From the NCBI GenBank assembly GCA_964016885.1, contig OZ024753.1, positions 38,626,001 to 38,690,000 of the forward strand: a stretch of DNA of 64,000 bases, in the 5' to 3' direction. Position 1 is the first letter of the stretch, and each line of letters starts with the position of its first letter. Shown here piece by piece: positions 9,301 through 28,177 of this stretch. Source of the stretch: Eledone cirrhosa (taxonomy: Eukaryota). A program made the position numbers and the translations under genes. Below the pieces are notes generated by a model. It had not been told where the DNA came from. It searched no databases and saw nothing but the letters and a program-made list of their open reading frames with translations.

Positions 9301-10474
9301 GTACCAGTAATGCACTGGGGTAGATTTAATCGACTTTCCCTACCCCCAAAATTGTTGGCCTTGTGCCTAAATTAGACACCAATATATATATGAAATAAAA
9401 ACTTGTCTCACACCTTATTTTAAGGTAAAACAAGGTGGTTTCCTGTTAGGGATCAAAGGTGTGCGGTCGAAGGTGAAGAAAGGAAATGTTGCACGTGCAA
9501 TATCTCTGTCACACCCCGTGTAAATTCGTTTAATGACCTCACTGATAAAACAATGACGTTATAGATACTGTCTGATAGTGTAGCTGATGAGGTCAACCCT
9601 GATAAAGCAGGAGGGCTCTTTCGAATAAGGAGCCACATGACAGACATGTTAAAGGGTTACTACGTTGTATCTGTTGCCCCAAAAGTTTACGAATGGTTCA
9701 GGTATACCTAATTTTAAATAGACACACAAGGTAGAAGCAATTGCGTTGGTAGAAGCAGAGGAAGTATTGTTAAATCGACGGATGCTTTACTTTTTAGATA
9801 GCTAACTTCCATTTTGCAAAGTTCAATTTTCTAGTTGAGCTAAATTGAAATTTTATGAGTGTTGTTTGGCGAGGATATGGATAAACCTTCCATGACAAAA
9901 GCCCCATAAGACAAAAAAAACAAAAAACCCACAGGACAAAAGCCAGAGCAGACTAAGATCCTACCGGAAAAATCCTCTTTCTCTCCTACCGAACAAACAC
10001 TCACATAGTAAAATCTAAAACAGTAAAAATAAACAACAAAGCCTCTTTATAGTAAGGTAGTATAGTTAATACGAATCATTGTGAAATATATAATAAAAGA
10101 CCGATATATTTAAAAAACCCGCTACAAGGCAGTAGAAATATATAGAGGTTAATAGCCCTGAAATATGTTGAAATATACTGGTTAAAACATTACTTTGTTT
10201 TGTTTTATTTGTCATCCTTTGGCCTTTGTATGTTGAACTAGCTTTTAGAAACTTATCAGTCTCATATATAGTATTTTAATAGCTAACATTATGAAATATA
10301 ATTTATTTACCTGAGGAAAATAAACTAAAACCTATATTCAAGTTACTCTACTACCCCAAGTATCGAGTACTCTGTCGAGAAATGGTCTTACCAGTTCCAA
10401 ACTGAATCTATCCTGATATATATATATATATATATAATATATAAGATCAAAAGATGGTTAAAGGAGTTCCATGT

Positions 10475-10543
10475 ATTTTATTATGCGCATTTCAAAAACA
10501 AACATCATCATGCAATAATATTTGTGTTTTCATCAGATAAAAC
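10475..10543 (-). ncRNA. Minimal type I hammerhead ribozyme (family E, intact arm)
   Basis: Minus strand: gttttat CTGATGA aaac-acaaatattatt/gatgatgtttgt-tttt GAAA tgcgca TA ataaaat. Confidence 0.75.
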
Positions 10544-10663
10544 AGGAGAACATGATATGAAGGCTAAAAAACACTTGTGGATAGTGCAGTTTTAAATCAA
10601 CATATGTTGATTTAAAACTGCACTATCCACAAGTGTTTTTTAGCCTTCATATCATGTTCTCCT

Positions 10664-10730
10664 GTTTTATCTGATGAAAACACAAATATTATTGCATGAT
10701 GATGTTTGTTTTTGAAATGCGCATAATATG
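10664..10730 (+). ncRNA. Hammerhead ribozyme (family E), stem I damaged by a local duplication
   Basis: CTGATGA 10671-10677, GAAA 10714-10717, tgcgcaTA; the 3' stem I strand is replaced by duplicated tgcgcataa(t/c)atggaat. Confidence 0.55.
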
Positions 10731-10986
10731 GAATTGCGCATAACATGGAATTCCTTTAACCATCTTTTGATCTTATATATTATGTATACTCCAGTCCTAC
10801 ACACTGTAGAGTGCTTCTTATCCGATATCTGCATTGCTTTATTGTACTACAATAAAACTCACCTCCTACATATATATATATATATATATAAATGAAGTGA
10901 TTCCGTCGGAAAAGTCCAAGAAAAAAGAGTGCTCTATGTAGGTAACAGAGCTTAATAGTTATGTATTAAACAACATAAGGCAATTA

Positions 10987-11047
10987 TTTCATTTACCAAT
11001 GGTTTCTTAAAAGCAAAAACATTTTGCTTTCAATCATCAGAATGAAA
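10987..11047 (-). ncRNA. Type I hammerhead ribozyme (family F)
   Basis: Reverse complement of the 11142-11202 motif. Confidence 0.8.
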
Positions 11048-11141
11048 AAATCCTGGCGTATTTATTGAGTTTGGATTTTAAAAAAACCCACAAAAAACCC
11101 AGGTTTTTAAAAATCCAAACTCAATAAATACGCCAGGATAT

Positions 11142-11202
11142 TTTCATTCTGATGATTGAAAGCAAAATGTTTTTGCTTTTAAGAAACCATTGGTAAATGA
11201 AA
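11142..11202 (+). ncRNA. Type I hammerhead ribozyme (family F)
   Basis: tttcatt CTGATGA ttgaaagcaaaa tgt ttttgcttttaa GAAA cca t tgg TA aatgaaa: 7-bp stem I, 12-bp stem II, canonical core. Confidence 0.8.
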
Positions 11203-11490
11203 TAATTGCCTTATATTGTTTATTACATAACTAAATATATATATATATATATATATATATATATATATATATATATATATATATATATATATATATATAT
11301 ATATATATAAGGATAGATATGTCTACACTCCGGAATGCAGAAGGATCAGGAACTGAGTTTCTTCAACTATTCTTCCATAACTCGTTGAGTAACCCCTCAC
11401 CGTACGTCAACTCTATCCAGTGTAGTAATTAACCATTACTGCATCCAGGATAATCTTATACCTAATATATATATATATATATATATATAT

Positions 11491-25168: not shown

Positions 25169-25237
25169 GTGCGCATTCATCAGATAAAATACAAATATTG
25201 TTTCATAAATATTGACATATCCAAAAAACAAGTTTTT
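25169..25237 (-). mobile_element. Family A fragment truncated within HHR stem II
   Basis: Minus strand ...ttgtattttatCTGATGAatgcgcac then (TA)n; related forward copy with a core deletion at 26237-26372. Confidence 0.6.
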
Positions 25238-25570
25238 ATATATATATATATATATATATATATATATATATATATATATATATATATATATATATATATA
25301 TATATATATATATATATATATATATATATATATATATATATATATATATATATATATATATATATATATATAGAGAGAGAGAGAGAGAGAGAGAGAGTGA
25401 AGGCGTGTGGCTGTGTTGGTTAGAGAATTGGGTTCACAATCGTGAGGTTATGAGTTCGATTCCCGGACCCGAGTGATGCGTTCTTTATTTGACATTGTTC
25501 CTTCTACCTGGAGATAGTATCACCAATAGATAGTATCACCCATAGATAGTATCAGCAATTGGAAAGACCA

Positions 25571-26240
25571 ATGGAAACATTGTTTCCTTGGTCCGATTTG
25601 ACGAAAGTCGATCGAAAAAAAAATATATATATATTTCTGACGGATTTACTTCATTTATATATATATACAAAATGATGGAAACATTGTTTCCTTGGTCCGA
25701 TTTGACGAAAGTGGATCGAAAAAAAAAAATATATATATTTCTGACGGATTTACTTCAGTTATATATATATATATATATATATACAAAATGATGGAAACAT
25801 TGTTTCCTTGGTCCGATTTAACGAAAGTCGATCGAAAAAAAAAATATATATATTTCTGACGGATTTACTTCATTTATATATATATATATATATATATATA
25901 TACAAAATGATGGAAACATTGCTTCCTTGGTCCGATTTGACGAAAGTCGATCGAAAAAAAAAATATATATATATTTCTGACGGATTTACTTCATTTATAT
26001 ATATTTACAAAATGATGGAAACATTGCTTCCTTGGTCCGATTTGACGAAAGTCGATCGAAAAAAAATATATATATATATTTCTGACGGATTTACTTCATT
26101 TATATATATTTACAAAATGATGGAAACATTGTTTCCTTGGTCCGATTTAACGAAAGTCGATCGAAAAAAAAATATATATATATATTTCTGACGGATTTAC
26201 TTCATTTATATATATATATATATATATATATATACAAAAT
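25571..26240 (+). repeat. Six-unit ~105-120 bp tandem repeat with internal (TA)n
   Basis: atggaaacattg(t/c)ttccttggtccgattt... starts at ~25571, 25675, 25791, 25910, 26015 and 26120. Confidence 0.9.
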
Positions 26241-26509
26241 GAACTTATTTTTTGGATATGTCAATATTTATAAAACAAGTTTTGTATTTTATCTGATTTT
26301 GGTACCCTTGAAATATATATAATAAAATAAATATGGTTCTATAAACATTGTTTCCATTTATTAATATCATTGATATATACAGGGTGCGGACGATATTTGT
26401 TCGCAATTTTCAACTGCTAATTTTATGCAAATTTTTTTTACTTCCGTTGTCACTCTTGTCTTCATAAAAACAGTGGCTATATATATATATATATATATAT
26501 ATATATATA

Positions 26510-27270
26510 TGTGTGTGTGTGTGTGTGTGTTTGTATGTATTTGTATATGAGACTGTGTGCATATATATATGTGTGTATATGTGACTGCGTATATATATAT
26601 ATATATATATGTGTGTGTGTGTATGTGTGTGTGTGTATATGTGTGCGTGTGTGTTTGTATGTATTTGTATATGAGACTGTGTGCATATATATATGTGTGT
26701 ATATGTGACTGCGTATATATATATATATGTGTATGTGTGTGTGTGTGTGTGTGTGTATATGTGTGTGTGTGTTTGTATGTATTTGTATATGAGACTGTGT
26801 GCATATATATATGTGTGTATATGTGACTGCGTATATATATATATATATGTGTGTGTGTGTGTGTTAGTATGTTTGTGTGTGTGTATATATGTGTGTGTGT
26901 GTTTGTATGTATTTGTATATGAGACTGTGTGCATATATATATGTGTGTATATGTGACTGCGTATATATATATATATATGTGTGTGTGTGTATGTGTGTGT
27001 GTGTATATGTGTGTGTGTGTGTTTGTATGTATTTGTATATGAGACTGTGTGCATATATATATGTGTGTATATGTGACTGCGTATATATATATATATATGT
27101 GTGTGTGTGTATGTGTGTGTGTGTATATGTGTGTGTGTGTGTTTGTATGTATTTGTATATGAGACTGTGTGCATATATATATGTGTGTATATGTGACTGC
27201 GTATATATATATATATGTGTGTGTGTGTGTGTTAGTATGTATGTGTGTGTGTATATGTGACTGCGTATAT
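26510..27270 (+). repeat. Six-unit ~120 bp tandem repeat built from (TG)n/(TA)n
   Basis: ttgtatgtatttgtatatgagactgtgtgcatatatatatgtgtgtatatgtgactgcg repeated six times. Confidence 0.9.
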
Positions 27271-27504
27271 ATATATATATATGTGTGCGTGTGTGTGTGT
27301 GTGAAAGTGTGTGTGAATGTTGGACATGTCAGTTCTGATGATAAGTGTCACTGTTGATCGAACATCAGAACTATCTACTAATCACCTAATCACCTATCGA
27401 TGAGTACCACTTTATCATATAACAATAAATATTGAATGATCTTCTATAGATGGACACAAACGGATTATCTATAAAGCAGTTATATATACATATATACATA
27501 TACA

Positions 27505-27640
27505 TAGAAATAGCCGTCGAAACGGCTTGAGCTCTGCCGTCGGGGTCATACTTTTTCCTATTTCCCACTCTACTACCCTAAGTATTGAGTACTCTGGTGC
27601 GTTATGGTCCATCTGGTTCCTTACCACAATTTCTTTGTTA
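27505..27640 (+). mobile_element. Family D forward fragment plus tail
   Basis: Matches 28045-28177; a tail-only copy lies at 58034-58108. Confidence 0.7.
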
Positions 27641-27980
27641 TATATATACATATATATATACTGTATATATGTATATATACAAATATATATATATATGTAT
27701 ATATATATATGTATATGTATGTATAACCACAGACCCTCCATCTCAACTCTACTTTTCAAAAGCAGAAGAACTGCGAAACCGGTAAAGGAACCAAATAAAT
27801 ATATATATTTAAAAGAAAATAAGACTCCATTTGCATTTTCGATTTCATCTTTTTTTCTTTATATGTGTATATATATATATATAAATGTATCTATATACAT
27901 ATATATATATATATGTGTGTATGTATATGTATATATATATATATATATATATATATATATATATATATATATATATATAT

Positions 27981-28177
27981 ATAGGAACGAGTAGGACCCC
28001 GACGGCTGAGCTCAAGCTGTTTCGACGGCTAATTCTGAGTCCAGAATTAGCCGTAGAAACGGCTTGAGCTCAGCCGTCGGGATCCTACTCGTTCCTATTA
28101 CCCACTCTACTACCCTAAGTATTGAGTACTTTGGTGCGTTATGGTCCACCTGGTTCCTTACCACATTTCCTTCGTTA
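27981..28177 (+). mobile_element. Family D palindromic island (57-bp arms, 4-nt spacer, plus tail)
   Basis: 27981-28037 and 28042-28098 inverted; tail with ACTC 28104 ... GAGT 28124; (TA)n on both sides. HHR 5' core not included. Confidence 0.8.

Follow-up and report, generated by a model that had tools for sequence, protein, structure and literature searches.

Endonuclease-bearing Penelope-like elements (PLEs), such as Pen2a_Av (PMC3846280) and Naiad, Neptune and Hydra (PMC8557442), are described in the accessible parts of these two accounts as inserting into (TA)n targets with an inverted, 5'-truncated copy head to head with a forward copy, palindromes at the joint, a tail at one end only and, in canonical clades, a hammerhead in the pLTR. 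Their tails are given there as 30-40 bp, a typical rather than a strict length. The origin of the inverted repeats with a one-sided tail, together with microsatellite targeting, is named as an open problem in the accessible part of PMC8557442. For Poseidon of Anolis carolinensis, in vitro work established two reverse transcription (RT) starts, which lie on either side of the tail and match genomic ends, and showed that each target strand is cut and then extended; later steps are unvalidated there (PMC11167929). The layout, including the inverted pLTR without a 3' tail on which a preliminary description of the present locus relied, the paired RT starts and the extension of both strands after cutting are already published. 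Three points are new here: at the upstream site, seven of the eight families overlap the repeat in TA phase by 3-5 nt; tails are long (55-113 nt); and some units hold, in the tail-less arm, sequence missing from the tailed arm.

The window, the whole 64-kb stretch of DNA analysed, probably from an octopus, contains eight short repeat families (A, B, D, E, F, G, H and K) in (TA)n, which adjoins every unit; several are head-to-head pairs with a tail on one arm only (Table 1). A self-BLAST run with (TA)n masked, for finding inverted arms, returned copies that are inverted or solo. The published head-to-head layout is found in E, F1, G, A2, D1, A4, B1 and F2. Within 10434..28177, the full order of (TA)n, inverted copy, forward copy, tail and (TA)n given by the preliminary description is present in E (10437-10869), F1 (10890-11234, flipped), G (11494-12185), A2 (20397-20827), D1 (27984-28175) and the diverged D2 (20191-20377). 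Family B, which had been listed among the inverted-arm families of that interval, does have a tail-less arm at 314, but the interval holds a tailed B copy and no B palindrome; the tail length of 70-110 nt given earlier is corrected to 55-113 nt. Mirror units are E, F1, G, A2 and D1, a tail-only forward arm occurs in A4, B1 and F2, and in A3 two arms 81% alike are separated by short (TA)n. A target-site duplication would be masked by the flanking (TA)n, and no unoccupied target site was seen; a scan for TA-centred inverted duplications gave only two complex cases (5545 and 35111). A reading as MITEs or DNA transposons is rejected on account of the one-sided tail, the variable centres and the hammerheads.

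Table 1. Insertion units, solo copies and reverse-transcriptase fragments in the window (overlap, TA-phase overlap at the upstream site).
Feature	Coordinates	Strand	Remarks
B1	314..444	.	Tail-less inverted arm 314-386 (4-nt overlap), then small snap-back palindrome 391-428 made of tail end, then tail end
A1, tail-less family A copy	5590..5802	+	Hammerhead 5706-5754; ends at A site; no tailed partner from own family
H, short palindrome	6036..6390	.	3-nt overlap; nested SINE-like insert
E, tail-less (inverted) arm	10437..10603	-	Hammerhead core 10536, predicted cut 10482; 3-nt overlap 10434-10436
E, tailed arm	10604..10869	+	Palindrome centre 10603/10604 perfect; break site 10780/10781; RCTC-GAGY stem 10788-10812; tail 89 nt
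F1, tailed arm	10890..11100	-	Tail left, ~64 nt; stem 10931-10951; hammerhead core 11040
F1, tail-less arm	11104..11234	+	Hammerhead core 11149; strict overlap absent
G, tail-less arm	11494..11782	-	100% identity with partner over 290 nt; 3-nt overlap
G, tailed arm	11784..12185	+	1-nt central loop; degenerate hammerhead-like core 11924; tail 113 nt
D-like solo tail-less copy (12260)	12260..12306	+	(TA)n on both sides; ends at D site
B, solo tailed copy	14590..14845	+	Reference for B break 14755/14756; stem 14762-14807
D2, diverged head-to-head unit	20191..20377	.	Arms 76% alike over 41 nt; tail stem 20301-20324
A2, tail-less arm	20397..20590	-	5-nt overlap 20392-20396; hammerhead core 20495
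A2, tailed arm	20576..20827	+	Arms 100% identical over 146 nt; hammerhead 20639-20688; break 20737/20738; stem 20745-20764; tail 90 nt
A3, tail-less arm	20851..21045	-	5-nt overlap; short (TA)n next
A3, tailed arm, another subfamily	21064..21345	+	81% to adjoining tail-less arm
A4	24568..24771	.	130-nt tail-less inverted arm fused to tail-only forward piece that starts inside stem loop; arms non-overlapping
A5inv	25169..25234	-	End inside hammerhead; 0-nt overlap
A5fwd, tail-less copy	26242..26372	+	Ends at A site
D, solo tailed copy	27506..27638	+	
D1	27984..28175	.	Inverted arm 27984-28036; forward arm with 80-nt tail; 3-nt overlap; stem 28104-28127
B2, solo tail-less copy	30131..30194	+	
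B3, solo tail-less copy	31089..31150	+	
K, solo tail-less copy (41519)	41519..41594	+	4-nt overlap
K, small unit	47880..48040	.	4-nt overlap on tail-less inverted arm; forward arm carries part of tail
Broken PLE reverse-transcriptase ORF	50107..51685	-	Stops, frameshifts; residues 83-684 of relative P0001
A6, 5'-truncated tailed copy	55676..55795	+	5' end also joins (TA)n at TA-like run
D, tail-only copy	58033..58107	+	Starts 3 nt ahead of stem
Inverted twin of broken ORF	58484..59891	+	Residues 83-575 of P0001; runs into family K
K, tailed copy	59907..60043	+	55-nt tail; directly 3' of RT fragment
F2	63754..64000	.	Tail-less inverted arm and tail-only piece, with stem region present three times; extends past window edge

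Predicted ribozymes and RT relatives agree in marking the short families as Penelope-like, the identity proposed in the preliminary description. Nine type I hammerhead cores with a palindromic helix III, a type characteristic of PLEs (PMC4209133), occur in families A, E and F, as against 0.1 per shuffle (30 shuffles); the core in G is degenerate, and the motif scan of the window found none in B, D, H or K. Among the best 150 of 429 Rfam matches listed, there was no hammerhead and no match at gathering score. Many sub-threshold miRNA matches are present among the same 150. The window lacks an endonuclease region, and no ORF in the window is joined to families A-H, K being a possible exception. 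Pfam put no name to the RT fragments (0 of 6 relevant) and gave a single weak RVT_1 match for seven RT relatives. All seven full-length relatives examined have a CX2-5CxxC linker before a C-terminal GIY-YIG, a region that the window copy lacks, and by the linker motif of its relatives the broken RT is likely Neptune/Nematis-like. Among the 15 metagenome loci that carry RT relatives, two (L001 and L009) end in (TA)n about 55-65 nt past a hammerhead-like motif; a tailed and tail-less pair was found in none of the 15, and a search of metagenomes with the family A pattern returned no loci.

Nineteen tail-less ends were counted in the window. Five families have at least two each, and 14 of their 15 ends lie within ~4 nt of a common site (A 5/6, B 3/3, D 2/2, F 2/2 and K 2/2), the positions for A1, A4inv, B2, B3, 12260 and F2 being taken from gapped alignment; E, G, H and D2 have a single tail-less end each. 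All six junctions quoted in the preliminary description and all four of its family A breaks (5810, 20392, 20846 and 24567) are present. The exception among the 15 is A5inv (25169), which stops inside the hammerhead without overlap. Family A copies that differ by 9-14% have the break at the same base. The site follows the predicted hammerhead cut by 38-49 nt and sits at the base of a weak RCTC-GAGY hairpin. Its location a few nucleotides before the tail stem, as claimed earlier, does not apply to H, where the break is ~45 nt upstream of the unit's own stem (nested SINE-like insert discounted), or to K, where no RCTC-GAGY-type stem follows; G likewise lacks the stem, and in D1, E, H and the 5400 copy it is weakly folded (pair probability at most 0.25). 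The RCTC-GAGY motif ahead of (TA)n is a weak marker: its 20 hits, a few of them counted double, compare with 7.7 on average and at most 19 in 200 shuffles.

Comparison of arms bears on how often the break was made. Identity between the arms of one unit is 100% in A2 and G, 97% in F1 and 94% in D1, and identity of unit arms to other copies is lower (86-91%, 87-88% and 87-89%). Because arms are closer to their own partners than to other copies, the break likely arises anew at each insertion. In A2, A4, B1 and F2, the tail-less arm contains sequence absent from the tailed arm (in A2, ~20 nt beyond its 5' end), and simple fold-back therefore cannot produce such units.

A TA-like run at the break had been claimed generally; it is present in seven of the eight families, whereas F1 has a strict overlap of 0 nt (2 nt plus an extra A). 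With one unit per family the overlaps are 5, 4, 3, 3, 0, 3, 3 and 4 nt. The probability of a sum of at least 25 is 2.6e-4 under random break and random phase, 0.011 with the best phase, 0.097 within 2 nt and 0.37 within 5 nt, and that of at least seven of eight families with at least 3 nt is 2.6e-4 (best phase), 0.008 (within 2 nt) and 0.08 (within 5 nt), in a test that treats the eight families as separate although they are not fully independent. The signal thus loses significance once the break may slide 5 nt (P 0.08-0.37). Forward-copy 5' ends (A6, A8 and A3fwd) also join (TA)n at TA-like runs, of 3-5 nt by eye, so that joints with (TA)n may show such overlap in general.

Reads and contigs extend these observations beyond the window. 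Loose (TA)n behind 10788, at the E site, occurs in 255 of 8328 and 203 of 8669 reads of two RAD-seq runs, in 52 of 5081 contigs and in 2 of 83 contigs from another species; the pile-up recurs in other individuals and a second species, across four runs. No corresponding F pre-tail peak was seen among the rows listed. At two joints seen in reads, the tail-less arm contains sequence missing from the tailed arm: 10602/10776, with 77 and 90 reads plus 1 contig, and 10602/10840, with 95 reads that share a single start. The F joints vary: at least 11 opposite-strand rows lie at 10979-11085, from which a back-jump and two skip rows have to be subtracted. At 10982-10985, read ends and mixed loose ends sit on AATT, probably the library cut site, and loose ends at 10728 and 10743 are due to an insertion private to the E copy of the window. 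Taken together, window alignment and reads place the 3' ends at two fixed points and leave the 5' joints variable, the distribution foreseen in the preliminary description. The same material bears on whether the palindromes are fold-back artefacts of assembly or library, which that description had named as fatal to its proposal. The arms of G are identical, and no single read or contig covers the whole test stretch; but arms of E, F1, D1 and H diverge by 3-7%, the same break and head-to-head joints recur in the raw reads of two further runs and in contigs from another species, and a biological landmark anchors one of the ends. An artefact is thus largely refuted and hardly credible.

The main reading, held at a probability of roughly 0.55, is two-ended PLE priming in cut (TA)n, with the upstream register set by TA pairing of 3-5 bases. 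A Neptune/Nematis-type element would cut both strands of (TA)n, the target seen in the sequence itself, and likely prime reverse transcription from both ends, with one start at the tail end and the other at the fixed upstream site. The upstream start would be placed by protein, past the hammerhead cut and at the hairpin foot, and local pairing with the TA primer would pick the exact base, as the overlap statistic suggests. A tail-primed polymerase that stalls at the hairpin, or on meeting the other cDNA, could yield a tail-only forward arm; displacement of the other cDNA, or use of a second RNA, could yield a mirror unit. The two cDNA 3' ends would be joined by short overlaps or snap-back and then repaired. 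That both cut ends prime, as proposed earlier, accords with the two fixed 3' ends, the variable 5' joints and an independently templated tail-less arm (A2, A4, B1, F2 and the two read joints); the TA motif may act by annealing the primer. The analogy with twin priming suits units with non-overlapping arms but not mirror units, which need the same RNA segment to be copied twice, and priming at the RNA 3' end is doubtful because both starts are internal in the published element (PMC11167929). Pairing-guided priming at the upstream site is likely, although the same motif would be expected from an endonuclease that cuts at an internal TA and from slippage at a later stage. An extension, put forward tentatively, is that PLEs directed at (TA)n have acquired, at the upstream RT start, a TA motif matched to their target, so that a dimer would prime both ends of one cut by pairing, on one or two RNAs; A3 and 5400/A1 might then, jointly and just as tentatively, be hybrid products of two RNAs.

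Protein alone might instead fix the upstream start in two-start priming, the overlap being a by-product of an AT-rich site and of later slippage or microhomology deletion, by which the boundary would retreat to the closest TA-like run. The non-homologous start in vitro (PMC11167929), the sliding-window null, F1 without overlap and the TA-like runs at 5' joints agree with this; however, overlaps of 5 and 3 nt are present in A2 and G even though these units are young (arms 100% identical), A copies keep the same base where erosion would tend to blur it, and the GC-richer family D carries a 3-nt overlap despite a chance of 0.05, so that this explanation appears unlikely. A separate possibility is that the break was inherited: old tail-less copies transcribed into flanking (UA)n would pair with the target over their full length of repeat and breed new tail-less copies, the site having arisen rarely. 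All source copies lie in (TA)n, and separate origins would account for the solo tail-less copies as well as for the unlike pairs A3 (81%) and 5400/A1. Yet the tail-less arm is nearest its own tailed partner in A2, G, F1 and D1, and a first break at the same place in eight families is left unexplained, which makes inheritance very improbable.

Single priming at the tail end could also be followed by cDNA fold-back or second-strand synthesis, an endonuclease cut at the pre-tail TA-like site and joining to the other target end. The TA motif would then reflect nuclease specificity, and recognition by the nuclease reportedly requires the tail, a finding that PMC11167929 credits to Pyatkov in 2004. 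Fold-back copying or gene conversion would also account for the near-perfect hairpin centres of E, G and D1, with loops of 0-4 nt, for the B1 snap-back and for arms that are 100% identical, and asymmetric units could stem from later deletion in one arm. In their accessible parts, PMC3846280 proposes self-priming for such palindromes and PMC8557442 nuclease resolution for the tail. Against this stand the longer tail-less arms (A2, A4, B1 and F2, and both read joints), which need a one-arm deletion ending at the tail every time, the solo tail-less copies A1, B2, B3, 12260 and 41519, and the match of in vitro start sites to genomic tail ends (PMC11167929); fold-back with nuclease cutting is accordingly considered quite unlikely.

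These very abundant octopus-type families provide a natural product series of mirror, tail-only-forward, solo and unlike-arm units. If the target-matched TA motif is real, one rule would cover PLE inverted repeats, tails and microsatellite targeting, and the published view of homology-free PLE initiation would need qualifying. Hairpin units of this kind also risk being annotated as MITEs, miRNA precursors or assembly errors.

Compared with the endonuclease-bearing PLEs in the accessible parts of PMC3846280 and PMC8557442, the window units share layout, (TA)n targets and, in part, the hammerhead, but have longer tails and are 130-700 nt long without an ORF. No description of a TA-like run at the tail-less end was found in those parts, nor junction detail in the accessible parts of PMC9977147 and PMC2377424. 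The microsatellite insertion bias of Neptune/Nematis is seen in all units and in L001 and L009. Non-LTR retrozymes are likewise short, non-coding, derived from PLE pLTRs and equipped with a type I hammerhead, but form head-to-tail tandems, whereas window copies are head-to-head or solo (10.64898/2026.07.22.740005). Poseidon, which belongs to another clade if judged from the linker motif of the present relatives, also starts at a stem loop downstream of the hammerhead and is a predicted dimer; its AC-rich start is described as having no homology to the cut DNA, and it cuts at ATT, in contrast to the TA-like start and (TA)n target here (PMC11167929).

The fixed site and the five mirror units differ from L1 twin priming. 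The internal priming site of L1 is not known to be a fixed landmark. In L1 twin or dual priming, the second cut end primes inside the RNA by microhomology and inverted arms result, as proposed here, but the arms are different parts of one RNA (PMC2837659), which applies here only to A4, B1, F2 and the two read joints; in snap-velcro priming of L1, about four terminal bases matter (PMC3649969). Within PLEs, the nuclease-less Athena and Coprina offer a precedent for pairing-guided priming: according to the accessible part of PMC8557442, target-complementary stretches beside the hammerhead aid attachment to a repeat 3' end, although there the targets are telomeric overhangs and the stretches are longer, without a nuclease, unlike the window families.

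Against a G+C content of 31% and (TA)n runs in the hundreds, masked self-comparison and sense-orientation alignments of the window define the Penelope-like (PLE) insertion families A, B, D (with D2 and I), E, F, G, H and K. All junctions quoted in the preliminary description were found in the sequence. The window holds 19 tail-less ends, 15 of them in families with two or more; 14 of these 15 stop within ~4 nt of each other, consistent with the fixed break proposed earlier and not with scattered breakpoints. The exception, the inverted A5 copy (A5inv, 25169), stops within the hammerhead. 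In family A, six tail ends match to within ~2 nt. Tails measure 55–113 nt, a wider range than the 70–110 nt first given, and the placement of the break a few nucleotides before the tail stem does not extend to H (~45 nt before the stem, by hand count) or K (which has no stem).

Insertion units, by masked self-comparison and alignments, and other structures in the window
Feature	Position	Remark
Mirror units (head-to-head arms)	E 10437-10869; F1 10890-11234; G 11494-12185; A2 20397-20827; D1 27984-28175; D2 20191-20377; H 6036-6390; small K unit	
Long inverted arm with tail-only forward piece	A4 24568-24771; B1 314-444; F2 63754-64000	
Solo tail-less copies	A1 5590-5802; A5fwd 26242; B2; B3; 12260; 41519	
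Solo tailed, 5'-truncated copies	A6 55676; A7; A8; B main 14590-14845; 27506; 58033; I	
Mixed-family pair	5400-5545 (-) and 5573-5802	Tailed D2-like copy head to head with tail-less A1 across (TA)14; different families
Tripled stem region	63900-64000	Stem region of F tail three times in tandem at the F2 joint
Nested inverted structure, 12 kb	47880-60043	Paired segments 79–98% identical; broken PLE RT in both arms; asparagine-rich stretch and SINE-like piece upstream of RT; inner palindromes at 54740-55408 and 55890-55978
Inverted flank duplications with (TA)n at their centre	4583-4953; 8193-8586; 34863-35598; 35008-35271; 36467-37687; 42899-42982; 5526-5591	Look like the product of a broken TA end that folded back to copy the flank next to it
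SINE-like repeat, ~190 nt	5814-6005 (at A1 break); 6129-6324 (within unit H)	Inserts with apparent target duplications; many partial copies in the window
Adjacent open frames	45633-46727 (-)	233 aa and 130 aa; no Pfam match for either; probably a decayed mobile-element gene
Tandem arrays, ~120 nt, and a long (CAC)n-rich minisatellite	25560-26240 (between A5inv and A5fwd); 26470-27310; 16690-18080	Variable TA runs in the arrays
Repeat, 420 nt	15085-15503; 24088-24508	Opposite copies, 93% identity; one end of each adjoins (TA)n

The tail starts as a rule with RCTC...GAGY, with A-U replaced by G-C in B and F. Stem pairing in the 13 folded tails ranges from strong (A2, B, D2, I, F) through middling (A3, A6) and weak (D1, E, H, the 5400 copy) to none (G, K). 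A structure-aware scan found nine type I hammerhead cores, exclusively in A, E and F, versus 0.1 per shuffle; the predicted cut precedes the break by 49 nt (A2), 45 nt (E) and 38 nt (F1). Palindromic helix III, a described feature of PLE hammerheads in the available text of PMC4209133, is present in the window hammerheads.

A broken RT ORF occurs in two inverted copies (50107-51685 and 58484-59891), the right-hand one continuing into family K, the K tail and (TA)n; its fragment 59018-59449 has 72–77% identity to proteins named Octopus vulgaris, which makes an octopus the likely host. Of 15 metagenome loci of RT relatives, two end in (TA)n, ~55 and ~65 nt past a hammerhead-like motif. RT relatives at L002 and L005–L008 carry hammerhead-like cores 90–160 nt past the ORF without a microsatellite, and a 936-nt direct repeat stands at each end of L002. 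At L009 (1771-1861), a hammerhead and a short (TA)n are followed by splice-acceptor-like sequence and what we take to be a PLE N-terminal motif, so that this TA run may sit inside a tandem element.

TA overlap at the break was scored as the bases of the tailed reference that extend the (TA)n phase beyond it, using one hand-entered unit per family; it is 5 nt in A, 4 nt in B and K, 3 nt in D, E, G and H, and 0 nt in F. When break and phase are both drawn at random from these sequences, P(sum≥25) is 2.6e-4 and overlaps of ≥3 nt in 7/8 families appear in 0/200,000 draws; the test overstates independence, the families being partly related. The corresponding probabilities are 0.011 and 2.6e-4 under a best-phase null, 0.097 and 0.008 when the break is free within 2 nt, and 0.37 and 0.08 when it is free within 5 nt. 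The break falls at TA-like runs more often than a random point would, yet such runs are often available nearby. The 5' ends of A6, A8 and A3fwd likewise adjoin (TA)n at TA-like runs, as judged by eye. The enrichment over a random point is in line with the earlier proposal of priming at an internal TA microhomology; the pairing step itself is less secure, since primer pairing, a nuclease site or later slippage may each account for the motif, and sequence alone cannot tell them apart.

The two arms of a unit resemble each other more than they resemble other copies (A2, 100% versus 86–91%; F1, 97% versus 87–88%; D1, 94% versus 87–89%), and the G arms are 100% identical, suggesting that the break is likely made anew at each insertion, a pattern that gene conversion could mimic. 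On the tail-less arm of A2, the spacer matches sequence from further upstream in the family. This spacer, A4, B1, F2 and two read joints argue that the tail-less arm was not copied from the tailed arm and favour separate templating of two cDNAs, as the head-to-head joining proposed earlier would have it; B1 also shows a snap-back of a cDNA end (391-428). Tail-only pieces (A4, F2, 58033, A7, A8) begin within or near the stem, and in F1 the tailed arm, on slender evidence, seems to be the longer one. Both product classes could arise from a single RNA, depending on whether the hairpin stalls the tail-primed polymerase or the latter displaces the other cDNA. The arms of A3 (20851-21345) are 81% identical, and the 5400/A1 pair has 17 nt in common beside the central TA run; each reflects either an event with two RNAs or a pair of insertions.

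Our preferred reading, with a probability of roughly 0.55, is that both cut (TA)n ends likely prime in PLE units and that 3–5 nt of pairing probably sets the upstream register. A more tentative and rather doubtful extension is that (TA)n-targeting PLEs evolved a target-matched TA motif at the upstream start, and that a dimeric particle primes both ends by pairing, with one or two RNAs.

Four of 23 runs were aligned to 10585-11125, a stretch that contains the tailed E and F arms but not their mirror arms: two RAD-seq runs with the same species label, one contig set possibly from the source sample and one contig set of another species. Among the matches listed, loose (TA)n lies behind 10788, the E site, in 255/8328 and 203/8669 aligned RAD-seq reads, 52/5081 contigs and 2/83 contigs of the other species; 10781-10788 were pooled as one site because the aligner passes through one mismatch. 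Agreement of 0.67–0.68 past the TA run, among the matches listed, points to several loci behind this peak, although RAD depth per locus is uneven. Depth climbs ~7–10-fold at 10604; E therefore has a fixed 5' end, which accounts for its perfect centre. At the loci of the opposite-strand joints 10602/10776 and 10602/10840, a full inverted arm meets a nearly tail-only forward arm. F has at least eight opposite-strand joints at differing positions (10979-11085), no pre-tail peak among the matches listed, and a body depth 2–5 times its tail depth in contigs. An assembly or library artefact, which the preliminary description had kept in view, is unlikely because the arms of E, F1, D1 and H diverge by 3–7%.

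The units are real, not artefact, and mostly known. In the available text of these sources, the head-to-head layout with a one-sided tail is already described (PMC3846280; PMC8557442), twin priming and dual priming are defined (PMC2837659), and terminal pairing in L1 priming (PMC3649969) and fold-back of retrotransposon-cut ends (10.1101/2024.12.14.628481) are covered. Likewise, the accessible part of PMC11167929 has both strands cut and extended, with two start sites that are the tail ends and are stated to be non-homologous to the cut DNA. The available portion of PMC13282606 gives octopus repeat annotation and PLE counts without describing junctions, and that of a retrozyme preprint (10.64898/2026.07.22.740005) deals with tandems. 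Among freely accessible papers, and within the text that they make available, no report of a target-matched motif at the PLE upstream start and no paper on PLE mechanism linking Penelope to twin priming were found. New here, relative to these systems, are the long tails, the modestly enriched TA motif and a series of products that constrains the mechanism.
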